Assembly (NCBI GenBank): GCA_036446855.1
Contig: JAZFTU010000050.1
Span: 1 to 32,545, forward strand
Length of the DNA: 32,545 bases
Source: Candidatus Hydrothermarchaeaceae archaeon
Lineage (GTDB): Archaea; Hydrothermarchaeota; Hydrothermarchaeia; Hydrothermarchaeales; Hydrothermarchaeaceae
Direction of reading: 5' to 3'
This document shows positions 3,864 to 18,270 of the stretch, piece after piece. Made by a program: the position numbers and the translations under genes. Under the pieces are notes generated by a model. That model ran no database searches. It saw only the letters and a list, made by a program, of their open reading frames with translations, and had not been told where the DNA came from. Within the stretch, counting starts at the first letter, position 1; the number at the start of each line of letters is the position of its first letter.

Positions 3864-4967
3864 ATGATAGAAGAGCTTTTTGTGATTTTGGCAATTGGAG
3901 GGGGCATCATTGCTTCTGTTACTGACATAAAGTCAGGGATAATACCAAACCGGATGACATTTCCCCTAATCTTAATCGGCATTTTTGGATATCTTGCACA
4001 TGGGATCGTTTTGGGAAATCTCTCAACGTTTTTTGCATTATTAAAAGGCATCGTCGTAATTTTCATAGCGGGGTACCTGATGTGGGTACTTCGTGCATGG
4101 AGCGCAGGAGATGCAAAAGAGTTTTTATTCATAGCGGCGCTTATCCCGGTATATCCTGCGTTCCTTAACGGAACACTTAGCCCAACCATCGCAAGCTACC
4201 CCTTTGTAGTCACCGTGTTCATAAACACATTCCTTTCCATATTCCCTTTCATTTTTATTTACTCGATTTATGTTTCGCTGAAAAAAGGGCTCGCCTCCCA
4301 ATTCTTTTCACCGCTCAAGAGCATTCGAGGGTATATCAAAACCGCGTTTCTGTTAGTTGCGGCACTTGCCATTTCAAAATTCTTTGGGATATGGCTTTTA
4401 ACACCACTCGCCCTTTTTTTGCTCTACCGGGTACCTTACGGGAGTGGGGTAAGCGCACTTGTTATATCGGCCGATATATTTACTACGGGCACCTCTGTTT
4501 ATTCCCAGTTCCAATCCACCTTTTCGTATTTTTTTATATCGCTTCTGATTATTGTTGCAATCGGCCTGCTTAAAAACTCAATAAGCATTATCAGAAGCAA
4601 GGCACTTATTGAAGAGATTAAAATCACAGACCTAAGTGAGGGGGAGATAGTTGCGGAAGAAATTTATATCCAGGGTGATGAAGTATTAAGAGATAAAAGA
4701 AGCATGATAGAGAAGATAAAAGATGCCGCAAGGGATGGGGCCCATCAAAATTTATTTCAGAGGAAAAGCGTTGTGGGCACTGGCGCAGCAGGGGTTACGG
4801 GCGAAGAGGTAAAGCTCCTCCAAGGATATGTTAAAGATGGAAAGCTCAAAGATAGGATAAATGTAAAAAAGAGCATGCCCTTTGCTCCCGTTATCCTTGC
4901 TGGGCTTTTAATATCTCTAACGATAGGGGATGCTATGCTTGCGCTTAAGACGTGGTTATATGGGTGA
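3864..4967 (+). CDS. A24-family prepilin/preflagellin peptidase (EppA/FlaK-like) with extra C-terminal module
   Basis: Polytopic membrane protein. The first catalytic-Asp context is IIASVTDIKSGIIPN and the second is WSAGDAKEFLFIAALIP (GxGD-like), as in archaeal aspartyl prepilin peptidases. It is embedded among prepilin genes. Residues about 250-340 form a charged soluble insert before a last TM helix. Confidence 0.8.
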   Translation: MIEELFVILAIGGGIIASVTDIKSGIIPNRMTFPLILIGIFGYLAHGIVLGNLSTFFALLKGIVVIFIAGYLMWVLRAWSAGDAKEFLFIAALIPVYPAFLNGTLSPTIASYPFVVTVFINTFLSIFPFIFIYSIYVSLKKGLASQFFSPLKSIRGYIKTAFLLVAALAISKFFGIWLLTPLALFLLYRVPYGSGVSALVISADIFTTGTSVYSQFQSTFSYFFISLLIIVAIGLLKNSISIIRSKALIEEIKITDLSEGEIVAEEIYIQGDEVLRDKRSMIEKIKDAARDGAHQNLFQRKSVVGTGAAGVTGEEVKLLQGYVKDGKLKDRINVKKSMPFAPVILAGLLISLTIGDAMLALKTWLYG

Positions 4968-5556
4968 TGATAGAGGGCAGCTGACAATTGAAGGCATCCT
5001 TTTGATGGGATTTTTCATTCTGATATTTGTCGGCATAACTTTTCCTGCAGCACTTCGGGTGTCAAGCTCGAGTGAAGATATCGCATCAATACTGGAGGCA
5101 CAAAGCAACCTTGATAGGATATCAAGCGCAGTTGAGGCTGTTGCCGCAGGGCAGAAGGGGACGGTAAGGACGGTTACAATAGTTTCAAACATGGGCAGCT
5201 GGGAATTGAATACGAATGCCCCAACAGACGGCATCAACCCAACGCCCAAAAGACCGATACTTAACTATGAAATCGGCATCTGGGGTTCAGTGGGGGATGT
5301 GCCAGGACAGTTATACAGAATCCGCCCTGGATGGGGCGCAATTACAGTCCTGGACATACCGGGGGTGAGTAATGGGGAGTCGGCAAGTCTTGACGAGAGG
5401 ACATGCAGTCACTCTTTTGACGGAGAGGGCACATGGGACATAAGAATCGAAAACGCTGCAAATACTTCTGCCCCCTACATAGTATTTGATCCCAGCGATA
5501 CATCTGCTAACTGCACTGCCTCAAACACAACGATTAACATGTACCTGGTGGGGTGA
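4960..5556 (+). CDS. Class III signal peptide pilin-like protein
   Basis: MGDDRG-QLTIEGILLMGFFILIFVGITF (QxTxE plus hydrophobic helix). ATG 4960 overlaps the peptidase stop by 8 nt. The longer track ORF from 4930 has no support. Three N-x-S/T sequons cluster at the C-terminus (NTS, NCT, NTT). Confidence 0.75.
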   Translation: MGDDRGQLTIEGILLMGFFILIFVGITFPAALRVSSSSEDIASILEAQSNLDRISSAVEAVAAGQKGTVRTVTIVSNMGSWELNTNAPTDGINPTPKRPILNYEIGIWGSVGDVPGQLYRIRPGWGAITVLDIPGVSNGESASLDERTCSHSFDGEGTWDIRIENAANTSAPYIVFDPSDTSANCTASNTTINMYLVG

Positions 5557-5560
5557 TGAC

Positions 5561-6124
5561 ATGGAACGGGGACAGATAACAATAGAGATGATTTTGATTT
5601 TCGGGTTGTTCATTTTATTAATCTTCACTGTCTCTTTTCCCACCGCGCTTTTAGGGGATAGGAATTCAAGGGAAGTACAGATTGTGTCGGATGCAAAATT
5701 CGCATCAGACAGGCTCGCAACCTTCGCTGCAAGCATATCAAACCCGTCCGAAAAAAGGGAGGTGGAGATATATATGCCCGGATTTACCTCCGCCGGAAAT
5801 GCCTCAAATGATAAGCCCATTATCTGGTCTGCCATGTGCATCACGTCTGAAGGAAGCTTCCTTAATACCTCAATTGCCATAATCACAAGAACCAACGATG
5901 GTACTATCGTCAAACAGGAAACCTACAGTTTTTCTAAGAACCTGGGCAGGGGGAACTGGAAGACCTACGTAAATACAGGAAGCGGCTATAGCGAGGGGGT
6001 AATTGTCGAAGACCGCGGAAGTAAATATAACATTTCGATTTCGTGGGAGAATATCACATCAAATACGGTGCCCAAATATTTATCACTGACTAACTGCAGC
6101 GCCGTATCCACGCTGGGGACCTGA
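5561..6124 (+). CDS. Class III signal peptide pilin-like protein
   Basis: MERG-QITIEMILIFGLFILLIFTVSF. ATG 5561 is preceded by GGTGGGGTGA and lies 4 nt after the upstream stop. Five N-x-S/T sequons (NAS, NTS, NIS, NIT, NCS). Confidence 0.75.
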   Translation: MERGQITIEMILIFGLFILLIFTVSFPTALLGDRNSREVQIVSDAKFASDRLATFAASISNPSEKREVEIYMPGFTSAGNASNDKPIIWSAMCITSEGSFLNTSIAIITRTNDGTIVKQETYSFSKNLGRGNWKTYVNTGSGYSEGVIVEDRGSKYNISISWENITSNTVPKYLSLTNCSAVSTLGT

Positions 6125-6125
6125 T

Positions 6126-6587
6126 ATGAAGGGTCAGATATCTATAGAGGCGATAATGGCCCTTGGGATAGCGATAGTAATCCTTGCGTCATTTACAAAC
6201 ATAACCTGGGAGAGGTATCAATCGGCAAAGGAGATTGGGGAATCTGGAGAGGCGAGGATGACAGGAGAGCTTTTGGCAGCCGCAATAAATATCGGTTACT
6301 CAAATGGGGAAGGGTTTCGCCTCTACCTGGGCAGCAACAAATTGAACTTCTCAAAACTTGACGATATGGGCGTTAAGCTTCCGATAGTTATTAACAGTGC
6401 CAATAGGACGATAGACATTACAAAGAACGTGACGCGTGCAGGGGGCGCTCTGTGGAATGTGTCTGTTGGGATAATCCCTGCAAATTTGTTGAAAAATTCT
6501 ACTTCTCAATATCCAGAGCTCACAGTCTTAAATAACGGCACCCATGTAATTATTTATGCGGGGGAGTCAAATATTGCAGTCCAGTAG
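6126..6587 (+). CDS. Class III signal peptide pilin-like protein
   Basis: MKG-QISIEAIMALGIAIVILASF. It starts 1 nt after the upstream stop. Seven N-x-S/T sequons in 153 aa (NIT, NFS, NRT, NVT, NVS, NST, NGT). Confidence 0.75.
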   Translation: MKGQISIEAIMALGIAIVILASFTNITWERYQSAKEIGESGEARMTGELLAAAINIGYSNGEGFRLYLGSNKLNFSKLDDMGVKLPIVINSANRTIDITKNVTRAGGALWNVSVGIIPANLLKNSTSQYPELTVLNNGTHVIIYAGESNIAVQ

Positions 6588-6595
6588 GTGAACAT

Positions 6596-7309
6596 ATGGG
6601 CCATATCGAAGATGTAGGCGAGGCAATTCTAACGTTTATAAGCAGGACTATTTACCACACGATAGGCTTTTTGATATGGATGCTCAAGTTTTTAAGGCCG
6701 CTTGAAAGAAATATAAAAATATATCCATATTTTGAGAAACGCAACATTGAGCTTAAGGATTACGTGGTCCTGAAGGCCCAGACGGCAACTTTAATTTTCC
6801 TGATGTCTTCTGTGGTTTTTGTCTTCGGGTTCTTAAGTTTCAAAAATCTCGCTTTTTTATTTATCGTATTTGGGGCATATTCCCTGCACATTACACTGGT
6901 GCAGTTAAAAGAGCACTTCTCAGGTGACTATCCGGCATACAAAATGTTTTTCTTATCATACCTTGCAATATCTGTATTGCTCGTGGTTGTCAAGCTGGCA
7001 AAACCTACCGTGAAAATCGTCTTTCCTCTTTTTCACCTGCTGCTCCTATCGATGGTCTTTGTTGGAGCAGTGTCATTTCTGTTCAAGCGTAAATTCGGTA
7101 GAACCTACACACTTGGCCGGGTATTAAAAAGCGGTGATGAGATCGTCGTGAAGGTAAATTACGACCTTCGCTCGGGAGTAAAGCCGGGCGTACACACCTT
7201 TGAGAACAAGTTGAAAGCTAAAGAAGGGGACCACGTAAAGCTTTTAGTTGAGAGCAGCAGGTTTAATCTTCGCGGGAGCAGGGTCGTTGGACTTATGCCG
7301 GTGGAGTAA
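6596..7309 (+). CDS. Membrane protein (about 5 TM helices) with soluble beta-rich C-terminal domain; last gene of the pilin operon
   Basis: 237 aa with hydrophobic segments through about residue 165. The C-terminus reads YTLGRVLKSGDEIVVKVNYDLRSGVKPGVHTFENKLKAKEGDHVKLLVE. AGGTGA lies 6 nt upstream of the ATG. Possibly the archaeal DUF2101 family (recollection, unverified). Confidence 0.65.
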   Translation: MGHIEDVGEAILTFISRTIYHTIGFLIWMLKFLRPLERNIKIYPYFEKRNIELKDYVVLKAQTATLIFLMSSVVFVFGFLSFKNLAFLFIVFGAYSLHITLVQLKEHFSGDYPAYKMFFLSYLAISVLLVVVKLAKPTVKIVFPLFHLLLLSMVFVGAVSFLFKRKFGRTYTLGRVLKSGDEIVVKVNYDLRSGVKPGVHTFENKLKAKEGDHVKLLVESSRFNLRGSRVVGLMPVE

Positions 7310-9593: not shown

Positions 9594-10475
9594 ATGGGAA
9601 ATATAAAGGTAGCAATTCTAATCGCACTTTCTCTTGCCCTCCCAGTTTTTTTCCTGAAATTTCCACTTTACGTATCGATAAGCTTTGATTTGGAGCGCGA
9701 CCCGCCGGCAATCAACCAGGGGATGACATCTTTTGAGGGTGTCGGAAAGGTTGCGGACATCCTAGATATTTTGGAACGGCACGATGCACGCGGAACATTC
9801 TTTTTTACCGGGAGGGTGGTAAAAAGGTTCCCTACAACCGTATTGGGCATCTGGGAACGCGGACACGAAGTTGCCGCACACGGAGGATTTTACCACGACG
9901 AGAGTATTTTTGGCCTCCCGGCAGGTGAGCAGAAGGAAAAAATTTCAAGGACAAAAAAGAGAATAGAGAATATTACAGGCGTTAGAGTTCATGGATACCG
10001 CGCGCCCGGACATAGAATTGACAAAGCCACATTCATTGCCCTAAAAGAGCTTGGATTTGCATACGACTCCAGCATAGTTCCAGGTATTGGAGGATGGGTA
10101 CTGTACAATCACATGATTTTTTCGCCTGTTTCCCCCTATCGCCCTAATATTGATGGCCGCATCTTTTCAGAAAGTTTGGACTTTCTAGAAATTCCCATAT
10201 CTCCCCTATTTATTAACGGAAATCTCGATTCCCTCCTTGCCTATCAGGGGCAAACGATAACAAAAATCGAGCTTTTTTTCACCGCCGTAAAGTGCAAAAT
10301 TCAAAGGCGTCCCATGGTCCTGTACCTGCACCCGGGGCTTATGGTCGACCTTCCCAATGAGCCATCAGATTACAGGTCGGGAGAATACCTGATGGATGAA
10401 TTTGATGATGCGCTTTCCTTTTTGGATATGCTTGGCGCAAGATACGTAGCACTGGAAGAAATTAAATCCCTCTAA
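9594..10475 (+). CDS. Polysaccharide deacetylase (CE4 / NodB-homology) with N-terminal membrane anchor
   Basis: N-terminal hydrophobic helix, then ISFDLERD, ARGTFFFTG, HEVAAHG and YRAPGH motifs typical of NodB-type deacetylases. Confidence 0.8.
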   Translation: MGNIKVAILIALSLALPVFFLKFPLYVSISFDLERDPPAINQGMTSFEGVGKVADILDILERHDARGTFFFTGRVVKRFPTTVLGIWERGHEVAAHGGFYHDESIFGLPAGEQKEKISRTKKRIENITGVRVHGYRAPGHRIDKATFIALKELGFAYDSSIVPGIGGWVLYNHMIFSPVSPYRPNIDGRIFSESLDFLEIPISPLFINGNLDSLLAYQGQTITKIELFFTAVKCKIQRRPMVLYLHPGLMVDLPNEPSDYRSGEYLMDEFDDALSFLDMLGARYVALEEIKSL

Positions 10476-11127
10476 AAAGCCTTATTCCAAGCCTCTTGGG
10501 AAGTCCCGCTTTCATAATCGCACTCGATGTCTTTTCTATGTCATAACCCACCCTTTTTATTTTGACTTCCTTTTTTTCTGTGTCCAAAAGGGCATAGCTT
10601 GCCCGGGGGTCAGAGTCTCTTGGCTGTCCGACGCTTCCAGGGTTAAAAATCAGCTTTCCCTCGATTTTCTTAACAAAGGGAATGTGGGTGTGGCCCAATA
10701 TTATTATGTCCCTATTTGTATAGTTGAAAAAGTCAGAAAAAACATAGTCAGGGTCACCTGGGAATATATACCCTTCCAGCGGGTTTTTCGGGCTTCCGTG
10801 TACCATGTAAAACTCATTTTCATGTGTCATGGGGAGTGCCTTCAGAAAACTTCGGTTTTCTGGGGTAAGCTTGCCTGCCGTCCATTCGATTGCCTTTATG
10901 GCCTCTGAATTGAACCAGCCGGTGTCTCCCGTCAAAACGGCCCGGTCGTGATTTCCTAAAAGTGAGGTAGCATTATTAGTTCTTATGAGGTCAATTGCCT
11001 CGTTTGGAAATGTATTGTAACCCACAAGGTCGCCACAGCAGAATAAAGGCATCCTCGAAATATCCTCTAAAACCTTCTCAAGCGCAGGAAAATTCGCATG
11101 TATGTCTGAAATAACTGCAACCTTCAT
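10462..11127 (-). CDS. Metallophosphoesterase (YfcE/MJ0936-like)
   Basis: MKVAVISDIHAN, CCGDLVGY, GNHD, VHGSP and GHTHIP form the complete calcineurin-like phosphoesterase motif set. I place the start at ATG 11127. The track's 61-codon N-terminal extension to 11310 is Pro/Cys/Arg-rich, non-homologous, and overlaps the divergent gene. Confidence 0.85.
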   Translation of the reverse strand: MKVAVISDIHANFPALEKVLEDISRMPLFCCGDLVGYNTFPNEAIDLIRTNNATSLLGNHDRAVLTGDTGWFNSEAIKAIEWTAGKLTPENRSFLKALPMTHENEFYMVHGSPKNPLEGYIFPGDPDYVFSDFFNYTNRDIIILGHTHIPFVKKIEGKLIFNPGSVGQPRDSDPRASYALLDTEKKEVKIKRVGYDIEKTSSAIMKAGLPKRLGIRLFRGI

Positions 11128-11150
11128 CAATGACAATATTTTTCTGTGGG

Positions 11151-11160
11151 AATTTAAAAT
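11151..11160. promoter_or_regulatory. Quasi-symmetric TATA-like element (AATTTAAAAT) between or inside divergent genes
   Basis: Centred about 28 nt from the phosphoesterase ATG (11127, minus strand), suggesting a leaderless transcript. It lies between the two candidate starts of the plus-strand glycosyltransferase gene. Confidence 0.35.
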
Positions 11161-11168
11161 CATTGCAT

Positions 11169-12800
11169 ATGAAGAGGCATGAGATTTTTTTTCTGGCAGC
11201 GGTGTACCTCCTGGGCCTCTACTTGAGACTTTTTCCCAGGCTTGAGATAGACCCGCACCTCTTGACGTTTCAGGGGGACATCTGGTACAGGCTGTGCATG
11301 GCGCAGTCAATTTTAGACAACCACGTGCTGCCGGAACCGGACATCCGGTATCTCGCTTACGGCTATGTGCCGATGTGGTACCCGCCGCTCTCCCCCATGC
11401 TTTTTGCGCTCGGAAGCTTCGTCTCGGGTCTTGATGTTGCGACGTTTAGCTCCAGGATTGTTCCATTTTTCGAGGCGGCTACGCCGCTTTCGATATACTT
11501 TTTGGCCCGCTATCTATACAACGGGAAAGCGGCCATTATTGCGACTTTGGCACTTGCGATGACGCCATCCTTCGTGTTCTGGTCTGGCATTTCAGACCCC
11601 CAGTCGTTCACGCTTTTTGTGCTCCCCCTCCTGGTACTCTTCTGGATATGGCACTCGGGGCAGGATGCAAAAAATAAGAACATGAGGCTACTTGCGATGG
11701 GGATGATTCTTGCAGTAAATTTCCTCATGCACCTATCATACTTTTTAGAGGTCCTGATTTTATTTGCAGTAACGCTTGCACTGATTATAAACAGAGAGGC
11801 CAAAAAAGGGCTTATTGTAGATTTTTTTAAGGTAGTGCTCATATCGCAGGCCATAACTGCATTTTGGTGGCTCCCAAATGGCCTCTACTTTTGGTGGATA
11901 AATGCGCTTGTGACCTCAAGCGGCATGTACGAGGCATCAAAGCACCTTTCAGAATACGGCATATTTGCAGGGATTCTTGGGGTTTTCTCCTTCCTTTATA
12001 TCTCCCATGGGTATTTCTTCAGACGCAGGCTAAGGCACCTTATATTAATACTCTGGGCCCTGCCGATATTTTTGGAAACGCAAAATGAAAGCATAATCTG
12101 GATGCTGGGAAAAATAAATACTGACTGGTATAACACGCTCGTCTGGTCGACGGTGGGTAAGCCCCTCGAGGGATTTAGGTTTTACTGCTTTTTAGCGCAG
12201 CCCCTCTCGCTTGCCATAGGAGTATTTGCAGCCGAGCTTTCTGAAGTGGCAGGAAGATACCGAAGGAACCTGGGCATTTTCGTGATAATACTCTTTATCT
12301 TCGGTTTTGCCTGGGGACTCTCGGATTATCGGTATGACGTAAAATTCCAGACATCAGGGATTACCCCCCAGGAATATGAAGCCGCCCAGTGGTTTCGGGA
12401 AAACTCTAAAAAAACAGACAGGATAATAGCTGATTACTACCGCGCCCAGATGTTCTGTGCGGTCTCTGGCGGAAAGGCCCTTTTGGGTGGCATGTTCCCG
12501 CTCAGAAACGTTGACTATCCCTATATCAAGGCCCCAGGAGAAGTGCAAAACGACCTCTACAAACTCTATAAGGCGGATGGGCCCAAGGAGGCGTCCATGC
12601 TCGCAAAAAGATACGGCGCAACGCACATCTTCTACTCTGACAACATGAAAAGATACGGAAATCTCCTGTCGTATCAAAAGCCGGCCTCACAATATGGCGT
12701 TGACATAGATGAGAAAAAATTCTCTAGCGAAGAATTTTTTGAGTTCGTTTACAGGGAACAATCTCCATATGGGGAAGTTGTTATTGTGCAGGTGAAATAA
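11169..12800 (+). CDS. Polytopic membrane glycosyltransferase, GT-C fold (STT3/AglB- or PMT/ArnT-like), with C-terminal soluble domain
   Basis: About 13 hydrophobic helices. The first loop, GDIWYRL...PEPDIRY, resembles the DxD/DPxYxxR loop of GT-C enzymes. A soluble domain of about 170 aa follows. No canonical WWDYG is present; the nearest matches are AWGLSDYRY and IIADYYRAQ. The start could be ATG 11169 or ATG 11130. Confidence 0.5.
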   Translation: MKRHEIFFLAAVYLLGLYLRLFPRLEIDPHLLTFQGDIWYRLCMAQSILDNHVLPEPDIRYLAYGYVPMWYPPLSPMLFALGSFVSGLDVATFSSRIVPFFEAATPLSIYFLARYLYNGKAAIIATLALAMTPSFVFWSGISDPQSFTLFVLPLLVLFWIWHSGQDAKNKNMRLLAMGMILAVNFLMHLSYFLEVLILFAVTLALIINREAKKGLIVDFFKVVLISQAITAFWWLPNGLYFWWINALVTSSGMYEASKHLSEYGIFAGILGVFSFLYISHGYFFRRRLRHLILILWALPIFLETQNESIIWMLGKINTDWYNTLVWSTVGKPLEGFRFYCFLAQPLSLAIGVFAAELSEVAGRYRRNLGIFVIILFIFGFAWGLSDYRYDVKFQTSGITPQEYEAAQWFRENSKKTDRIIADYYRAQMFCAVSGGKALLGGMFPLRNVDYPYIKAPGEVQNDLYKLYKADGPKEASMLAKRYGATHIFYSDNMKRYGNLLSYQKPASQYGVDIDEKKFSSEEFFEFVYREQSPYGEVVIVQVK

Positions 12801-12802
12801 GA

Positions 12803-12814
12803 AAAATATATATT
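12803..12814 (+). promoter_or_regulatory. TATA-box-like element upstream of the KaiC-fusion gene
   Basis: AAAATATATATT is centred about 29 nt upstream of ATG 12838. That spacing fits an archaeal TATA-to-TSS distance with a leaderless or near-leaderless mRNA. Confidence 0.4.
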
Positions 12815-12837
12815 CTACATCTTTCATCCTTTTGATT

Positions 12838-14901
12838 ATGAAGGAGTTTCCTGAAAAGTATACCTCGGTACTCACAGGGCCTCCGGGTGTCGGAAAGCAT
12901 ATATTCGTGCTGGATTTGGTGAAGTTCTATCTCGAAAAGGGGGAGAGCGTAACATACATCACGACCGAGCGCAGTCCCAAAGAAATCAAAGACATTGCAA
13001 AGAAGGCCGGCCTGGATTTGGACAAGTACGAGGGGAGCAAGTTCATCTTTATAGACCTATACTCCCATTCCACGGGGGGGAGATATGACAACGGATTTAG
13101 CATAGACAACCCTGCAAATTTAAATCTCATTACCGTAAATTTGACAAAGGCCGCAGACATCGTGGGAAAGCCTACGAGGATATTTTTCGATTCTCTTTCC
13201 ACGCTGTTTCTCCACGCCCCTGAACCCGAAATTAAAAAGTTCTTTGGGGTGCTTTCGTCGAGGGTGAAGACAGATTACGGTTTCATAATATACACCCTCC
13301 AGGACGAGATGCACAATGAGCAGACAGTTACTGCGCTAAAACACATGGTAGACAGCGTTCTGGAAATGCGATTCGATGAAGGTCCCCCCTTAAAAAATTT
13401 GTTTCGGGTGCATCATGCGAAAGGCATGAAAACCAGTCCCACCTGGCTTGAATTTGAAGCAGGCGAAGAAGGATTCAAGATACTTGGGGAGTTTGTTTCA
13501 GCTCAGGTGGCACCAGCGCCATCTCCAGTAGCAGCCGAAAAAGCGGCACCATCAAGTAGCGTGATAAAGTTTGGTGCAATCGGTGTCGTTTTACTATTGG
13601 TGGCAGGTGGAATTTTTATGATAAAGGGCGGTGGAGATGAGATCGAGCAAGGTACAGATGAAGGGCCGGTGGTGATAAAGAATTTTTATTCGCTTAAGAT
13701 GGACAAGACCGTAAATGTGAACGGAAAAGAGGAGCCTGCAGCAATAGATATGAAAACCCGCATAGATTCGAAAGCGCCTGATAAAGGATGGCTTTTGATT
13801 GAAAATCCATTCTATAAGATAGAACTGAACCTTGACCACCCGTATTACCGCCTCTATGACAAGATTACTGGAAAGGAAGTTACCATGTTCAATGATAAAG
13901 TGGATAATCAGATAGACATGATTACGGGCTCTGACATCGGATACGCAGACCACTCCGGAGAAAATAAGGTTCAATTCTCGACAACGGCACTGCACGATGT
14001 AGACGGCATCATCAGGCAGACGATTGTTTATGAAGATAAGGAAAATGGTTTTGTACTTTTAAATACGGAGGGATGGGATTTTATTCCCAGGGACCCTGCA
14101 TCAGGCTATGATGCAGAGGCAGAAGTCATGCTTGGCCTGTTTGCAGACAGGCCGTACTATATAGATGCAATGGAATTTAACAACCTTCAGATGCTAGGTT
14201 ATGTCATGCAGCGGTCCTCAAGAGACCCTGACGAAATCGTCAGGTCGTGGGTGCTTTCACCAGATTACAAATCCGCAGTTATCAGAGGCGGGGACTCAGA
14301 GCATTTAAACAAAGTGATTTACGAAGACATCTATCAGGTGCAGGGGATTTCTGATGTGGCAAGAAAGCCTTACCACTTTGGTTCTGCTGCCATTTCAAAG
14401 ATGTTTCCAGATGATGTGCTCTTTGGAGACAAGCAGGGGGGCGCCATAGTATTTACCCTGCCACAGGGGAGGGCAAGATGGGATGACTCAAAGGGCATCT
14501 GGGGAGAACAGGTGAGCGGGGAGTACATACTCTACGTTGAAGAGCCTGAAAATGCAATAGCATGGACGATTGAGCCTGTAAATGAACTTGAATTTCTCTA
14601 CGATATTGTAGAGTTTACCACAGTACCCGGTTATCAAGAGTCCCTAAAAGAGATAGTGGAGAGATATGGAATGGAATATCCCGGAGGAGTTATTAGCGCC
14701 CACAACTGGACAACGAAAAGAACCGCATATGTAATAACTCTGGTTCCTCCAGGGTGGTACGATGCAGCGACAAATAAACCTACTGAAGGGACATGGGGCC
14801 TTGTAGATTCGGCACTGGAAGATTACAAGAGGTATGAGGGCATCATTTACACGCAGCTAGAATCGACAAAGCCTGTTGCCGCAATGCTGCTTAGAAGATA
14901 A
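12838..14901 (+). CDS. KaiC/ArlH(FlaH)-like RecA-superfamily ATPase domain fused to one TM helix and a ~425-aa extracytoplasmic domain of unknown fold
   Basis: Walker A is GPPGVGKH (nt 12877-12900, GGA AAG CAT) and Walker B-like is PTRIFFDSLS. The rest of the KaiC-like domain runs to about track residue 220. An AQVAPAPSPVAAEKAAPSSS linker follows, then the TM helix FGAIGVVLLLVAGGIFMI (about nt 13564-13623). The remaining ~425 aa carry no motif I recognise. ATG 12838 lies about 29 nt from an AAAATATATATT box; the track start is TTG 12832. Confidence 0.75.
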   Translation: MKEFPEKYTSVLTGPPGVGKHIFVLDLVKFYLEKGESVTYITTERSPKEIKDIAKKAGLDLDKYEGSKFIFIDLYSHSTGGRYDNGFSIDNPANLNLITVNLTKAADIVGKPTRIFFDSLSTLFLHAPEPEIKKFFGVLSSRVKTDYGFIIYTLQDEMHNEQTVTALKHMVDSVLEMRFDEGPPLKNLFRVHHAKGMKTSPTWLEFEAGEEGFKILGEFVSAQVAPAPSPVAAEKAAPSSSVIKFGAIGVVLLLVAGGIFMIKGGGDEIEQGTDEGPVVIKNFYSLKMDKTVNVNGKEEPAAIDMKTRIDSKAPDKGWLLIENPFYKIELNLDHPYYRLYDKITGKEVTMFNDKVDNQIDMITGSDIGYADHSGENKVQFSTTALHDVDGIIRQTIVYEDKENGFVLLNTEGWDFIPRDPASGYDAEAEVMLGLFADRPYYIDAMEFNNLQMLGYVMQRSSRDPDEIVRSWVLSPDYKSAVIRGGDSEHLNKVIYEDIYQVQGISDVARKPYHFGSAAISKMFPDDVLFGDKQGGAIVFTLPQGRARWDDSKGIWGEQVSGEYILYVEEPENAIAWTIEPVNELEFLYDIVEFTTVPGYQESLKEIVERYGMEYPGGVISAHNWTTKRTAYVITLVPPGWYDAATNKPTEGTWGLVDSALEDYKRYEGIIYTQLESTKPVAAMLLRR

Positions 14902-14923
14902 GAAAGCTATTTAATTGAGCAAG

Positions 14924-15724
14924 ATGGAAAAATTTACAATGATTGAAAAAACTCCTACGGGAATTGAAGGATTGGACGAAATGCTGGATGGCGGGGTACC
15001 AAAAGGATACACCATCCTCGTTGCGGGAGGTCCCGGCTGCGGGAAGAGTACATTTGCCATGCAATTTTTGAAAAATGGCGTTGAGCAGCACGGAGAGAAT
15101 GGTATTTACATATCACTTGAAGAACTTGCAAAAGACATGGTGAGAAATTTTTCCGGATACGGCTGGGACTTGAGCAAAATAAAGATTGTCAGCATGATTC
15201 CACAAAAGGCAAGCACTGTTCAGGAGACAAAATACGTTGAGCTTTCTGACGTTATTGAAAAAAAACAAGAAAAGCTAAATGCCGTAGAACTGAAACCCAA
15301 AAAGTTTTCTGTCGATCTGGTAAGAGATATAATCAAAGAATACGTAAAGGAGGTTGACGCAAAAAGGCTCGTTGTTGACTCCCTTGCGGCCCTCTCGGTC
15401 CAGCTTGAGGATGCCTTTTCAATCAGGCAGGAAATTTTGGGCCTTAGCAATCTTTTGACCGAACTTGGCTGCACATCCCTGCTGCTTACCGAAATGCCGG
15501 AAGGTCAGAAAGGGATAAGCAGATACGGCATAGAAGAATTCATCTGCCAGGGCGTTATTGCACTCTACAACATCAGGAAGGGGAGCGAGAGGGTAAGGGG
15601 CCTTGAGATTCTAAAAATGAGGGGAACAAAGCACAGCCAGAAAATCTGTCTCATGGAAATGGGAGCCCAGGGAATTATAGTATACCCGAATGAAAATCTG
15701 CACAGCGGCACATCTGGATTTTAA
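14924..15724 (+). CDS. Single-domain KaiC-like / RadA-like ATPase (soluble)
   Basis: TGIEGLDEMLDGGVPKGYTILVAGGPGCGKSTFAMQF (canonical Walker A), RLVVDSLAAL (Walker B), and LEILKMRGTKHS, typical of KaiC-family members. It lies 22 nt downstream of the preceding gene. The track start is TTG 14915. Confidence 0.85.
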   Translation: MEKFTMIEKTPTGIEGLDEMLDGGVPKGYTILVAGGPGCGKSTFAMQFLKNGVEQHGENGIYISLEELAKDMVRNFSGYGWDLSKIKIVSMIPQKASTVQETKYVELSDVIEKKQEKLNAVELKPKKFSVDLVRDIIKEYVKEVDAKRLVVDSLAALSVQLEDAFSIRQEILGLSNLLTELGCTSLLLTEMPEGQKGISRYGIEEFICQGVIALYNIRKGSERVRGLEILKMRGTKHSQKICLMEMGAQGIIVYPNENLHSGTSGF

Positions 15725-17214
15725 GCCGAGGACTGTATCTTTTTCAGAACTTCATCAGAGTCTTTGTAATAGTCCTGAATCCACTTGTAAACAACGTCCA
15801 ATTTTGTTATGCCCTTCCCAGCAAGGTAGTCCAAGACAATCGTCCTCTTCTCAAGCTCAATGTTAAGCTCTTCACCGCTGATTCCAGCCTTTTTTGCAAT
15901 ATCCTGCTTAAGCCTGCTGGGAGTTCCAGTGGCCTTTACCTTATCCTCTTTGGGGTCATGCTCGTAAATCTTGTTTAAAAGGACCTTATCAAGCTCGGTT
16001 CCTGCAATCTCTGCAATCTCTGTAACTCGCCTTCTCACCTTCCCGCCGACAGAGATTCTATTTTGCATTATTATCATGTCCATTGCAGGTATCATAATGA
16101 GGGGAACGTTCATCGGGGCATTTATGAGCCTTGTCACCGTCTCGTTTGCAGTGTTTGCGTGCGCAGTGCCCATGCAGCCGTCGTGCCCTGTGTTCATTGC
16201 GACAAAAAGGGTTGACGCCTCCTCTCCCCTCACCTCTCCAAGAATCAGGCGGTCGGGCCTCATTCTAAGCGTGTTTATAAGGAGCTGATTAAAAGAAAGT
16301 CCGCCCTTTCCCTCTACGTTTGGAGGCTTTGTCTCAAGCCGTATCATATGTTGGAGTGGAAGCTGCAATTCTGCGGTATCTTCTATCGTAATTACCCGCT
16401 CTCTTTTAGGGATAAATAGTCCCAGACAGTTTAGCGTTGTAGTCTTGCCTGAGCCCGTACCTCCCGATACCAGTACGTTTGCAGGCTTTACCCCCATGCC
16501 GTCTACGGCAAGCCACATAAATGCAGCGACTTCAGAAGAAAACGTCCCAAAGTTAATAATGTCAATTATGGTAAGTGCCTCTGCCTTAAACTTTCTGATT
16601 GTAATTGTAGAGCCGTCTAGCGATGCAGGTTTTAGGGTTGCATTAACCCTGCTTCCGTCTGGAAGTCTTGCGTCCAAAAGAGGATTTGCGATATCAATTT
16701 TTCTCCCGGAGAATCTGCCAATCTTCTCTATTATCCTCTGGATGTCCATATCGTTTTCGAAGACAATGTTTGTAGGAATGGCACCGTGCTTCCTGTGCGC
16801 AACATAAACAGGAGCTCCTACCCCGATTACCATGACCTCTTCGAGGGCGTCGTCATTGAGGAGTGGCTGAATTGCGCCGTAACCTATCATGCTGTTGACT
16901 ATTATTTCTCCCATCTGGAAGAGTTTATTGCTGTCTGGCTCCTCAAAACCTTTCCGCTTTTTGACGCCGGATTTAAATACCTCGATTTCTCCAGCCATCA
17001 TCTCTGAAACTTCTTCTCTGAGCTTTTCTTTTCTGGTCTCTTGATCTGTTATGCTGTCCAGATTAATAGACATTTCCCTGATTGCCCGGTCAGTGACATC
17101 TATCATGAACTGTCTATCAGCAGGGGTCAAATCAGGCAGATTAACTTTGTAAAGCAGTTCTTTTTCTTCGTCTTCTATAATCTCAAAGTTTTCCCCTGAT
17201 TCCAAAGCTGCCAT
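15721..17214 (-). CDS. Type II/IV secretion-system family ATPase (archaeal ArlI/FlaI / PilB / VirB11-like)
   Basis: 497 aa. Walker A is VSGGTGSGKTTTLN, with ITIEDTAEL, Walker B DRLILGEVRGEEA and the His box GHDGCMGTAHAN. These are the hallmark motifs of the GspE/FlaI family. Confidence 0.9.
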   Translation of the reverse strand: MAALESGENFEIIEDEEKELLYKVNLPDLTPADRQFMIDVTDRAIREMSINLDSITDQETRKEKLREEVSEMMAGEIEVFKSGVKKRKGFEEPDSNKLFQMGEIIVNSMIGYGAIQPLLNDDALEEVMVIGVGAPVYVAHRKHGAIPTNIVFENDMDIQRIIEKIGRFSGRKIDIANPLLDARLPDGSRVNATLKPASLDGSTITIRKFKAEALTIIDIINFGTFSSEVAAFMWLAVDGMGVKPANVLVSGGTGSGKTTTLNCLGLFIPKRERVITIEDTAELQLPLQHMIRLETKPPNVEGKGGLSFNQLLINTLRMRPDRLILGEVRGEEASTLFVAMNTGHDGCMGTAHANTANETVTRLINAPMNVPLIMIPAMDMIIMQNRISVGGKVRRRVTEIAEIAGTELDKVLLNKIYEHDPKEDKVKATGTPSRLKQDIAKKAGISGEELNIELEKRTIVLDYLAGKGITKLDVVYKWIQDYYKDSDEVLKKIQSSA

Positions 17215-17280: not shown

Positions 17281-18270
17281 TCACTTTTCAATTGGATACT
17301 TGTACGAGCCGTCAGTATTTTTAGTGTTTGCCCATTCGTCCCAGGATCCATCGTAGTTTCTTACGTTCTCATAGCCTAAAATCTCTTTTAGCGCAATTAA
17401 GGTGTGGGAAACTCTGATGCCCCCCTGGCAGTATATTATAATTTCCTTGTCCGAAGTGACACCAATTGCCTCGTACATATTTTTCAGCTCTTCTTCTGAC
17501 TTGAACGTATAGTCTGGATTCATAACATCTCTCCAGTTGAGGAAAACGGCTCCAGGTATGCGCCCGCCCCTCTCAGAGCCAAATTTTTTCTTGCCGTCAT
17601 ACTCTTCTTTAGCGCGGTTGTCTAAAATCACAATATCGCTGTTGTCAAGATTTTCGAGAACGTAGTTCCCCGTGGCCCTCGTGCCAGCGTCCGGCTCGTC
17701 TGCCGTATACACTGCCGGAGTTACAGTTGGCGAGCCCCCGCCTTGCGTTTCCCTTCCATCACTTGTCCACTTCTCTATTCCACCATCTAAAATCCCAATA
17801 TTCTCGTGTCCATAATACTTGAGCGTCCACCACATTCTGGCAACCCATGCAGCGTCCCAGGCTCCGCTGTATTTCCCATAGACGACGACTACATCTTCAT
17901 TGGAAATTCCATTATCGCCCATTGCCTTCTCGAATTTTGCCTTGCTTGCCACGATTCCAGAACTGCCCTTTGTCTTGGGAGATTCCATTATATCGTTGGC
18001 ATCAATGAAAATGGAACCGGGTACGTGCTCTTTTGAGTAGCTTGATTTGGCACCTCTTCCCGTGCCCACGTAAACGATGCGCAAATTTGTGGCGCCCAGA
18101 TTTTCAGCCAGCCAATCTCCATTAACAATTGGGTCTACCCCTTCCACAGGCGATTGAGTGGGTTGTGGAGGTTCGGGAGGGGGAGTCGTGCACCCGGATA
18201 ATACGAAAACCGCCCCCAAAAAAACTATTGTGATAAATGCGAACTTGATACTAAACTTTCCTGTGTTCAT
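17281..18270 (-). CDS. Secreted/lipoprotein tandem-rhodanese sulfurtransferase (thiosulfate/3-mercaptopyruvate type)
   Basis: The signal peptide has a lipobox-like VLSGC followed by the Pro-rich linker TTPPPEPPQPTQSP. Two rhodanese domains follow. The C-terminal active-site loop is IIIYCQGGIRVSH. AGGAGG RBS upstream. Confidence 0.85.
   Translation of the reverse strand: MNTGKFSIKFAFITIVFLGAVFVLSGCTTPPPEPPQPTQSPVEGVDPIVNGDWLAENLGATNLRIVYVGTGRGAKSSYSKEHVPGSIFIDANDIMESPKTKGSSGIVASKAKFEKAMGDNGISNEDVVVVYGKYSGAWDAAWVARMWWTLKYYGHENIGILDGGIEKWTSDGRETQGGGSPTVTPAVYTADEPDAGTRATGNYVLENLDNSDIVILDNRAKEEYDGKKKFGSERGGRIPGAVFLNWRDVMNPDYTFKSEEELKNMYEAIGVTSDKEIIIYCQGGIRVSHTLIALKEILGYENVRNYDGSWDEWANTKNTDGSYKYPIEK

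Follow-up and report, generated by a model that had tools for sequence, protein, structure and literature searches.

An anchored pseudo-KaiC with a predicted mutarotase-like ectodomain lies in a conserved gene trio with a soluble KaiC and a secretion-type ATPase in Hydrothermarchaeota

KaiC-like ATPases are among the most expanded and least understood protein families of archaea, and they have been proposed to act as signalling hubs. That view, inactivated 'iKaiC' domains included, is reportedly set out by Makarova, Galperin and Koonin in 2017, going by papers that cite them. Three elements of the locus described here have known precedents: KaiC-family ATPases are neighbours of archaeal type IV pilus ATPases (PMC4858521), inactivated KaiC domains occur in archaeal signalling proteins (PMC5847659), and the binding of ArlH to ArlI depends on nucleotide and on autophosphorylation (PMC5019145 and bioRxiv 10.1101/2021.03.19.436134). 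The locus lies in a window of 32,545 nucleotides (nt), the whole stretch of DNA that was analysed, from a Candidatus Hydrothermarchaeaceae archaeon (contig JAZFTU010000050.1 of assembly GCA_036446855.1), in which two co-directional genes, A and B, and a convergent third gene occupy positions 12838-17214 (Table 1). Gene A encodes, in order, a pseudo-KaiC domain, a linker, a single transmembrane helix and an ectodomain; gene B encodes a soluble KaiC-like ATPase, and the third gene an ATPase of the T2SSE family. The architecture of gene A, the family-wide degeneracy of its P-loop, the fold of its ectodomain and the linkage of the three genes rest on computed results, and we read the trio, tentatively and with not quite an even chance of being right, as a coupler across the membrane that joins a glycan-binding domain at the surface to a KaiC-T2SSE pair. 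In the literature searched on membrane-bound KaiC and on Hydrothermarchaeota pili, no single-pass anchored KaiC with a large ectodomain is described, in keeping with an earlier note on this stretch, made from the sequence alone, which knew of no characterised protein with the architecture of gene A. The anchored pseudo-KaiC, the orphan mutarotase-fold ectodomain and the TadC-less trio appear undescribed in that literature, with the proviso that the 2017 KaiC-hub paper may mention such an architecture.

The linkage of the three genes was evaluated in neighbourhoods obtained by exact protein look-up, from GTDB species representatives and from metagenomes, with the parts located by tblastn. The small KaiC is present in 14 of the 15 loci that have the fused gene and usable context, and a T2SSE gene is present in all 12 loci whose contig runs past the small KaiC; the trio loci span gene A identities from 87% down to 42%, and when metagenomes were searched with the ATPase, a single further locus (L037) came up, again carrying all three genes. 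The arrangement itself varies. The small KaiC lies on the gene A strand in nine loci and on the ATPase strand, operon-like and adjoining the ATPase gene, in four (L001, L011, L012 and L021); the B and ATPase genes abut or overlap across loci, with a cold-shock gene inserted between them in L005, and in L004 the B-ATPase pair lies 3-5 kb upstream. The identities of A, B and the ATPase drop together locus by locus, as expected for co-inheritance. The pairing of A with B and the proximity of the ATPase, on which the earlier note had built, are therefore kept in relatives at low identity and across rearrangements.

These neighbourhoods also bear on the possibility that there is no functional link, the three genes being independent and adjacent only through genome kinship. 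The loci all belong to a single archaeal lineage and those neighbouring it, and in the closest relatives synteny extends past the trio (to Metallophos, ABCE1 and SLOG genes), as this account would have it. Outside the closest relatives, however, the flanking genes vary and the trio persists, as it does through inversion of B, insertions and divergence to 42% identity; in addition, the KaiC and T2SSE neighbours follow the fused KaiC, being found at 14 of 15 fused loci as against 1 of 14 loci where the ectodomain gene has no fused KaiC. We regard mere kinship as very improbable. The computed linkage suggests that genes A, B and the T2SSE gene make up one conserved functional module, with the coupler reading of its function, taken as a whole, falling a little short of evenly balanced.

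The cytoplasmic domain of gene A belongs to the KaiC superfamily (DUF7504 also matches, with 36.9 bits against a cutoff of 27). The earlier note had described gene A as a KaiC domain, an Ala/Pro linker, one transmembrane helix and about 425 amino acids (aa) with no assignable motif, a division with which Pfam, hydropathy and the PDB search agree. Searched against the PDB, the gene A family profile matches KaiC CI (E 2e-17) and SSO2452 (2e-16) along its whole length, and ArlH structures at 3e-6 to 3e-5; because gene A aligns to SSO2452 only from residue 21 of the latter, the domain is without the N-terminal TGIxGLD segment and strand, which gene B has. A search of 5.8 billion proteins gave 50 relatives of gene A, the full-length ones 40-100% identical, and those with a named source come from Hydrothermarchaeota, Hydrothermarchaeales, Hydrothermarchaeaceae or generic Euryarchaeota. 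We read the motif columns in an alignment of 38 sequences, 34 of them KaiC-bearing. The Walker A motif with His in place of Ser/Thr, as the earlier note saw it in the window, turns out to be one instance of a family-wide condition: 34 of the 34 KaiC-bearing relatives have H, Y, K, F, L, R or Q directly behind the P-loop Lys and none has Ser or Thr there, and in four of them the Lys is displaced (GEK instead of GK). The relatives retain both the Walker B Asp118 and Glu44. Where a Glu pair is usual gene A has a single Glu (TTER), and the second position is Arg, Lys, Gln, His or Glu across relatives. Scored for the features of a competent KaiC (Walker A GxxxxGK[ST], Walker B Asp and the Glu pair), gene A falls short, though the Walker B Asp is kept.

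Judged from these residues, the gene A P-loop cannot coordinate Mg in the usual way, with the fold and the other motifs retained. Identity to the window protein across relatives is 41-90% in the KaiC domain, 43-83% in the ectodomain and 6-67% in the linker and transmembrane region; since the degeneracy is family-wide and the domain at least as conserved as the ectodomain, the degeneracy is old and the domain is under selection. On its sequence, the gene A KaiC domain looks like a selected pseudo-ATPase, for which a structural or regulatory role is expected. It resembles the iKaiC signalling proteins in that further modules are joined to a domain whose P-loop is degenerate and that KaiC genes lie beside type IV pilus ATPases, and it differs from them in that the fusions described in the papers citing the 2017 work are soluble (with REC, HalOD1, MEDS and other domains).

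The earlier note took gene B to be a canonical single-domain KaiC-like ATPase with the motif GGPGCGKST, and the Pfam KaiC match (219.4 bits, over a full-length single domain) bears this out. G35, G36, G38, G40, K41, S42 and T43 are invariant in 11 gene B orthologues, and the features of a competent KaiC are all present (GGPGCGKST, LEEL and VVDSL). Against the PDB, gene B matches KaiC CI and PH0186 (E 1e-52 to 3e-65), and it aligns along the whole CI domain of cyanobacterial KaiC (E about 1e-49). Compared with KaiC CI, gene B and its orthologues also have some 30 extra residues inserted (at about 15180-15330, residues ~86-136), where the PDB alignments split; to judge from sequence, it could be a partner-binding surface.

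Both proteins share the RecA/KaiC fold with cyanobacterial KaiC. They differ from it in being single-domain and not CI plus CII (PRK09302 gives 37 bits for A and 177 for B, against a cutoff of 408), and no KaiA or KaiB genes lie nearby (a KaiB-like gene is absent from the scanned window open reading frames, ORFs). A split KaiC, with B as the CI-like and A as the CII-like half, was considered and rejected: NCBIfam and some PDB matches put A on the CII half, but the family profile aligns best to CI over its full length.

The transmembrane helix that the earlier note predicted is found in gene A, so that a wholly cytoplasmic protein is not borne out. The segment FGAIGVVLLLVAGGIFMI has a best 19-residue Kyte-Doolittle mean of 2.39 and is the sole strongly hydrophobic stretch in the protein; its N-side flank is net positive (K233, K244), its C-side flank is acidic (five D/E residues), and an N-terminal signal peptide is not present. 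This positive-inside bias, together with the missing signal peptide, indicates an N terminus inside and a C terminus outside. A single transmembrane helix stands at the equivalent place in every architectural variant whose N-terminal part is intact.

Beyond the helix, the C-terminal ~425 aa are unlike any characterised family, as the earlier note had suspected. No Pfam match was obtained even at E<=10 when 14 diverse members were scanned (Aldose_epim among the models), the ectodomain profile found no relative among PDB sequences (only a spurious match at 0.086), and NCBIfam matched nothing in gene A outside the KaiC part. A profile search of 1.84 billion cluster representatives returned 18 proteins, all at E<=5e-14 and with no weak tail. 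By sequence, the ectodomain is a small, isolated new family. Structure prediction was more informative: the AlphaFold 2 (AF2) model, made from a 43-sequence alignment, is a single domain, mostly beta with C-terminal helices, with a predicted local distance difference test score (pLDDT) of 91.8 and a predicted template modelling score (pTM) of 0.92. Foldseek gave 81 PDB matches to this model at E<=1e-3, and the matches listed among the top 50 of the 81 are all carbohydrate-active enzymes, matched through a galactose-mutarotase-type supersandwich. The aldose 1-epimerases 3ty1, 3q1n, 3mwx, 4bze and 1snz are matched with probability 1.00 (E 4e-6 to 4e-5, target-normalised template modelling score 0.46-0.54), and the supersandwich domains of GH38, GH36, GH2, GH94, GH129 and PL26 enzymes are matched as well; the overall range is E 3e-6 to 1e-4, template modelling score 0.35-0.54 and identity 7-11%, an identity so low that the likeness is at the level of fold only. 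The AlphaFold and Foldseek check proposed in the earlier note thus ends in a confident model with a galactose-mutarotase-like fold, a carbohydrate-related fold. The predicted ectodomain shares this fold with the galactose mutarotase-like domains (aldose 1-epimerases; GH2, GH36, GH38, GH94 and PL26); unlike them, it is without sequence similarity, has about 100 extra residues (C-terminal helices included), and is membrane-anchored and extracellular.

Conservation within the domain is considerable: 49 columns of the 38-sequence alignment are invariant, many of them D, E, H, N, Q, R, W or Y and including D414, D425, E427, His513 and R547, and so many invariant polar and aromatic residues suggest a defined pocket. 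The extreme C terminus of gene A (14840-14898) reads ...ESTKP[VL]xAxLL followed by basic residues; it is kept family-wide, with Pro679 invariant, and is too short for a transmembrane helix.

The ectodomain always follows one N-in transmembrane helix, and it occurs with four kinds of cytoplasmic tail: a pseudo-KaiC alone; a zinc ribbon, TPR and pseudo-KaiC; one or more zinc ribbons plus a helical module, with a PKD/Ig domain outside; and about 40 residues only. The versions with the ~40-residue tail are found in genomes labelled Methanophagales, Methanospirareceae, Methanomicrobia and others, and the ectodomain also occurs in ANME-1 relatives. The single locus at which an ectodomain gene without fused KaiC has KaiC and T2SSE nearby is L019 (4682-10155), where a zinc ribbon-TPR-helical module-transmembrane-PKD-ectodomain protein is followed about 1 kb downstream by a KaiC of 403 aa, extended by 150 aa at its N terminus, and next by a T2SSE gene on the same strand; from its gene content, this may be an unfused version of the module.

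A set of paralogues (P0046-P0048; L035 8001-9497 and L036 8001-9488) provides a contrast. These membrane-anchored KaiC-like proteins have a P-loop of the canonical form GVGKS, followed by a Pro/Thr-rich stalk and a ~180-aa beta-sandwich ectodomain, and neither a soluble KaiC nor a T2SSE gene adjoins them; it is thus the degenerate anchored KaiC specifically that these two neighbours accompany. Of the hetero-oligomer of a degenerate anchored and an active soluble KaiC that the earlier note envisaged, the pairing is favoured by comparison (34 of 34 relatives without the Ser/Thr, and a GKS paralogue without KaiC or T2SSE neighbours), while the formation of a ring would be a further, inferred step. 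The ectodomain of P0046-P0048 is tentatively CBM11/CIA30-like (low-confidence AF2 model of P0047, pLDDT 63; Foldseek E 5e-4). In both L035 and L036 an unannotated gene of about 280-290 aa lies directly upstream of the paralogue, and L035 also has a polysaccharide deacetylase and a C5-epimerase-like gene. The same KaiC subtype recurs at the C terminus of P0049, after a signal peptide, a helical ectodomain and multiple transmembrane helices, and in the soluble protein P0050, where it is followed by a Vps4/katanin-like AAA+ ATPase.

Taken together, the ectodomain and its variants allow the opposite direction of action, from inside to outside, in which ATP use by the KaiC and T2SSE proteins switches or positions the ectodomain as an extracellular glycan-modifying enzyme or adhesin. 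The many invariant polar and aromatic residues lie on a sugar-enzyme fold; the ectodomain exists stand-alone with a ~40-aa tail, so it would have an intrinsic function outside; glycan genes recur nearby (a PMT_2-like gene and a polysaccharide deacetylase in the window, others in L004, L008 and L005); the T2SSE is without its usual TadC partner, so it may act on something else; and FtsEX-type control of extracellular hydrolases and Wzc-type control of polysaccharide assembly would serve as analogies. However, the likeness of the ectodomain to enzymes is one of fold, and its sequence is related to no enzyme family; genomes commonly hold glycan genes, and the nearby ones vary by locus; and force transmitted through a single transmembrane helix and a flexible Ala/Pro linker is mechanically hard to picture. 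We consider inside-out control rather unlikely.

The third member of the trio was evaluated against known secretion and pilus ATPases. It matches PF00437 with 160 bits (cutoff 24.9), has the Walker A motif GGTGSGKTT and ends in a PilB3_C tail; in the PDB it ranks closest to Archaeoglobus fulgidus GspE2 (2oap, 7e-76) and CpaF (1e-74), followed by FlaI (7e-55). The locus is like the ArlH-ArlI system in that a single-domain KaiC-fold gene (B) stands beside the gene for a T2SSE-family hexameric ATPase. The earlier note had called the ATPase ArlI/PilB-type and gene A ArlH-like, and the ArlI and ArlH labels do not hold: the ArlH model NF052589 gives 26.6 bits for A and 31.2 for B against a cutoff of 215, and the ArlI model NF058587 gives 301.5 bits for the window ATPase (nearer GspE2/CpaF) against a cutoff of 550. 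Genes for archaellins, ArlC-G and ArlJ are missing from the window and from related loci, the gene order differs from that of the archaellum, and the trio has a second, membrane-anchored KaiC-fold protein. The ArlH/ArlI parallel is an analogy only.

A nearer comparison is with the euryarchaeal ATPase-TadC operons (Thermococcus; PilB3-PilC3 in Haloferax), with which the ATPase shares the PilB3_C tail and, for the Thermococcus CpaF-family proteins among its relatives, 53-54% identity. In T. pacificus, source of the nearest ATPase relative examined from outside Hydrothermarchaeota (CpaF family, 53% identity), two T2SSF (TadC) genes come directly after the ATPase gene and KaiC is missing from its surroundings; here there is a KaiC pair, and TadC is absent at every examined locus. 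A tblastn search with Thermococcus TadC over 560 kb of locus DNA returned nothing, at a sensitivity that is low because TadC diverges fast. As the Thermococcus relative is arranged ATPase-TadC-TadC without KaiC, the trio departs from ordinary pilus loci. In the same lineage a longer T2SSE paralogue (L038 1-16457; 818 aa, 52% identical to the window ATPase, with no TadC nearby) is flanked by giant surface proteins of the NosD/beta-helix kind (3188 and 1375 aa).

The pilus relationship could alternatively mean that the pseudo-KaiC is a static scaffold or stator, whose only task would be to hold a type IV pilus-like machine, by its KaiC-T2SSE motor, at the membrane and, through the ectodomain, at the envelope, with TadC and the pilins encoded elsewhere. 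By analogy it would correspond to ArlX/ArlCDE plus ArlF/G in the archaellum; its pseudo-ATPase character suits a structural role, and the association of KaiC with type IV pilus ATPases is known (PMC4858521). The window also holds a prepilin peptidase and three pilin-like genes 6-9 kb upstream of the trio. In L003, however, the relative whose context reaches furthest, synteny with the trio does not extend to that cluster, none of the examined loci yielded a TadC, and the Thermococcus relative of the ATPase stands in an operon that has no KaiC. A stator is, in our judgement, improbable. The pilin-like proteins, which carry class III signal peptides, are rich in N-X-S/T sequons; no TadC adjoins their cluster, and directly after it comes a DUF2101 predicted membrane protein (6596-7309) with no T2SSF match.

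We return to the coupler that we tentatively prefer. The anchored pseudo-KaiC (A) would associate with the active soluble KaiC (B) as a mixed ring or as stacked rings at the membrane, and B, like ArlH with ArlI, would bind to the hexameric secretion-type ATPase. The stack so formed in the cytoplasm would have its oligomeric or nucleotide state coupled, via six single transmembrane helices, to the ligand of the ectodomain outside, which is likely to be an envelope or extracellular glycan. We lean towards outside-in control, in which the state of the surface glycan would tune KaiC and hence the ATPase. Domain shuffling on both sides of the membrane (the four kinds of tail, and the KaiC subtype with other ectodomains or AAA+) fits a signalling role, as far as sequence architecture can indicate one. 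A stronger formulation, that the trio represents a new class of archaeal transmembrane receptors, based on KaiC instead of histidine kinases or MCPs, in which a pseudo-KaiC ring reads a surface glycan and passes its state to a soluble KaiC that gates a TadC-independent secretion-type ATPase, we think unlikely as it stands.

Several observations weigh against the coupler. All data are from uncultured genomes; we infer that A contacts B, that B contacts the ATPase and that the ectodomain binds glycan, and likewise which way signals would run. Carbohydrate binding by the ectodomain would follow from likeness at the level of the predicted fold only (template modelling score 0.35-0.54). The conservation of the ectodomain is enzyme-like, and a sensor would explain it no better than an enzyme would, or a fixed ligand in the envelope. 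As the short-tail and zinc-ribbon versions have no KaiC, the ectodomain probably does something of its own at the surface beyond mere sensing, which keeps inside-out control and a static anchor as serious, if less likely, rivals. No enrichment of N-glycosylation sequons or Cys was found in the ectodomain (0-4 sequons per ~420 aa), which gives no added support for surface exposure, and neither the genes called in six loci nor the ORFs of the window included a T2SSF/TadC/PilC platform gene.

The interest of the trio lies in what it would make accessible. How signals enter KaiC hubs is largely unknown, and this module offers a concrete input route, an extracellular domain of carbohydrate-related fold joined to a KaiC fold; it also offers a natural pseudo-ATPase/ATPase pair for studying mixed KaiC assemblies. 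The secretion ATPase seems to have swapped its usual TadC neighbour for KaiC partners. If the coupler reading is true, the module may connect the cell surface with an ATPase machine in the cytoplasm in a way that has not been described before. Its host lineages (Hydrothermarchaeota and, for the ectodomain, also ANME-1 relatives) are uncultured, so recombinant biochemistry is the realistic route.

Table 1. Positions of the trio, its parts and neighbouring genes in the window (residue numbers are those of the gene A protein)
Feature	Position	Strand	Basis
Prepilin peptidase (Peptidase_A24 + Arc_PepC), upstream of the trio	3864-4967		
Three pilin-like genes, class III signal peptides	4930-6587		...DRGQLTIEG, MERGQITIEM, MKGQISIEA
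Polysaccharide deacetylase, upstream of gene A	9594-10475		
PMT_2 (GT-C glycosyltransferase-like) multi-pass membrane protein, directly 5' of gene A	11130-12800	+	Pfam PMT_2, 27.7 bits vs cutoff 26.1
AT-rich TATA-like element aaaaatatatatt	12803-12815	+	read from sequence
Gene A, 687-aa predicted type II (N-in/C-out) single-pass membrane protein	12838-14901	+	ORF 12832/12838-14901
KaiC-superfamily domain of gene A, residues 4-216	12847-13485	+	Pfam PF06745, E 8e-18, 65.1 bits vs gathering 26.6
Degenerate Walker A GPPGVGKH, residues 14-21 (His21 at the usual Ser/Thr site)	12877-12900	+	motif alignment
Ala/Pro/Ser-rich linker, residues 217-244	13486-13569	+	composition; least conserved segment, 6-67% identity
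Single predicted transmembrane helix FGAIGVVLLLVAGGIFMI, residues 245-262	13570-13623	+	Kyte-Doolittle
Predicted extracellular domain, residues 263-687, mutarotase-like beta-supersandwich then C-terminal helices	13624-14898	+	AF2 + Foldseek
Gene B, soluble single-domain KaiC-like ATPase with canonical motifs	14924-15724	+	Pfam KaiC, E 5e-65
Canonical Walker A GGPGCGKST of gene B	15026-15052	+	translation
T2SSE-family hexameric ATPase, 497 aa, TadA/CpaF/GspE2-like, PilB3_C tail	15721-17214	-	Pfam T2SSE, E 8e-47

With respect to gene calls, many homologues exist for each of genes A, B and T2SSE, so these are real genes and not chance ORFs. Homologues with the N terminus MKEFPEKY or MQEFPEKY fix the ATG at 12838 as the gene A start. 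For gene B an alternative ATG at 14939 is equally good (homologues begin M(I/M)EKTxTG), so the 22-nt spacer between A and B given by the earlier note holds if gene B starts at the ATG at 14924. The overlap of the convergent stops, also noted earlier, is confirmed as 2 nt shared by the gene B stop (15722-15724) and the T2SSE stop (15721-15723). The TATA-like box reported before the pair is present as aaaaatatatatt, a run ~25-30 nt 5' of the gene A ATG. Such spacing is consistent with an archaeal TATA box and a leaderless mRNA, and the element is, from its sequence, a possible promoter of a leaderless A-B transcript.

Among the neighbouring genes, the PMT_2-like gene 5' of gene A is kept only in the closest relatives: it is present in L003/L013 and L011 and not in L001, and the L003 orthologue scores 22.6 bits, under the cutoff. 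Glycan genes at other loci differ by locus, with GT2 and GT4 genes overlapping the fused gene stop in L004, whereas L008 has an O-antigen-polymerase-like gene and L005 a UDP-sugar dehydrogenase. PADLOC, run for a defence reading, gave generic P-loop matches to mad8 only (B 2.9e-9, ATPase 7.9e-5) and none for gene A. Upstream of the ATPase and on its strand, a tandem-rhodanese protein (17281-18270, -) has a lipoprotein-like N terminus (...FLGAVFVLSGCTTPPPEPPQP), and its gene is not kept beside the trio in other loci. Lastly, the Metallophos ORF (10462-11310, -) is listed with a far-upstream TTG start and so overlaps the PMT_2-like gene on the opposite strand by 180 nt, probably an artefact of ORF listing, because the Pfam match starts at residue 62 (MKVAVISDIH...), the probable true start.

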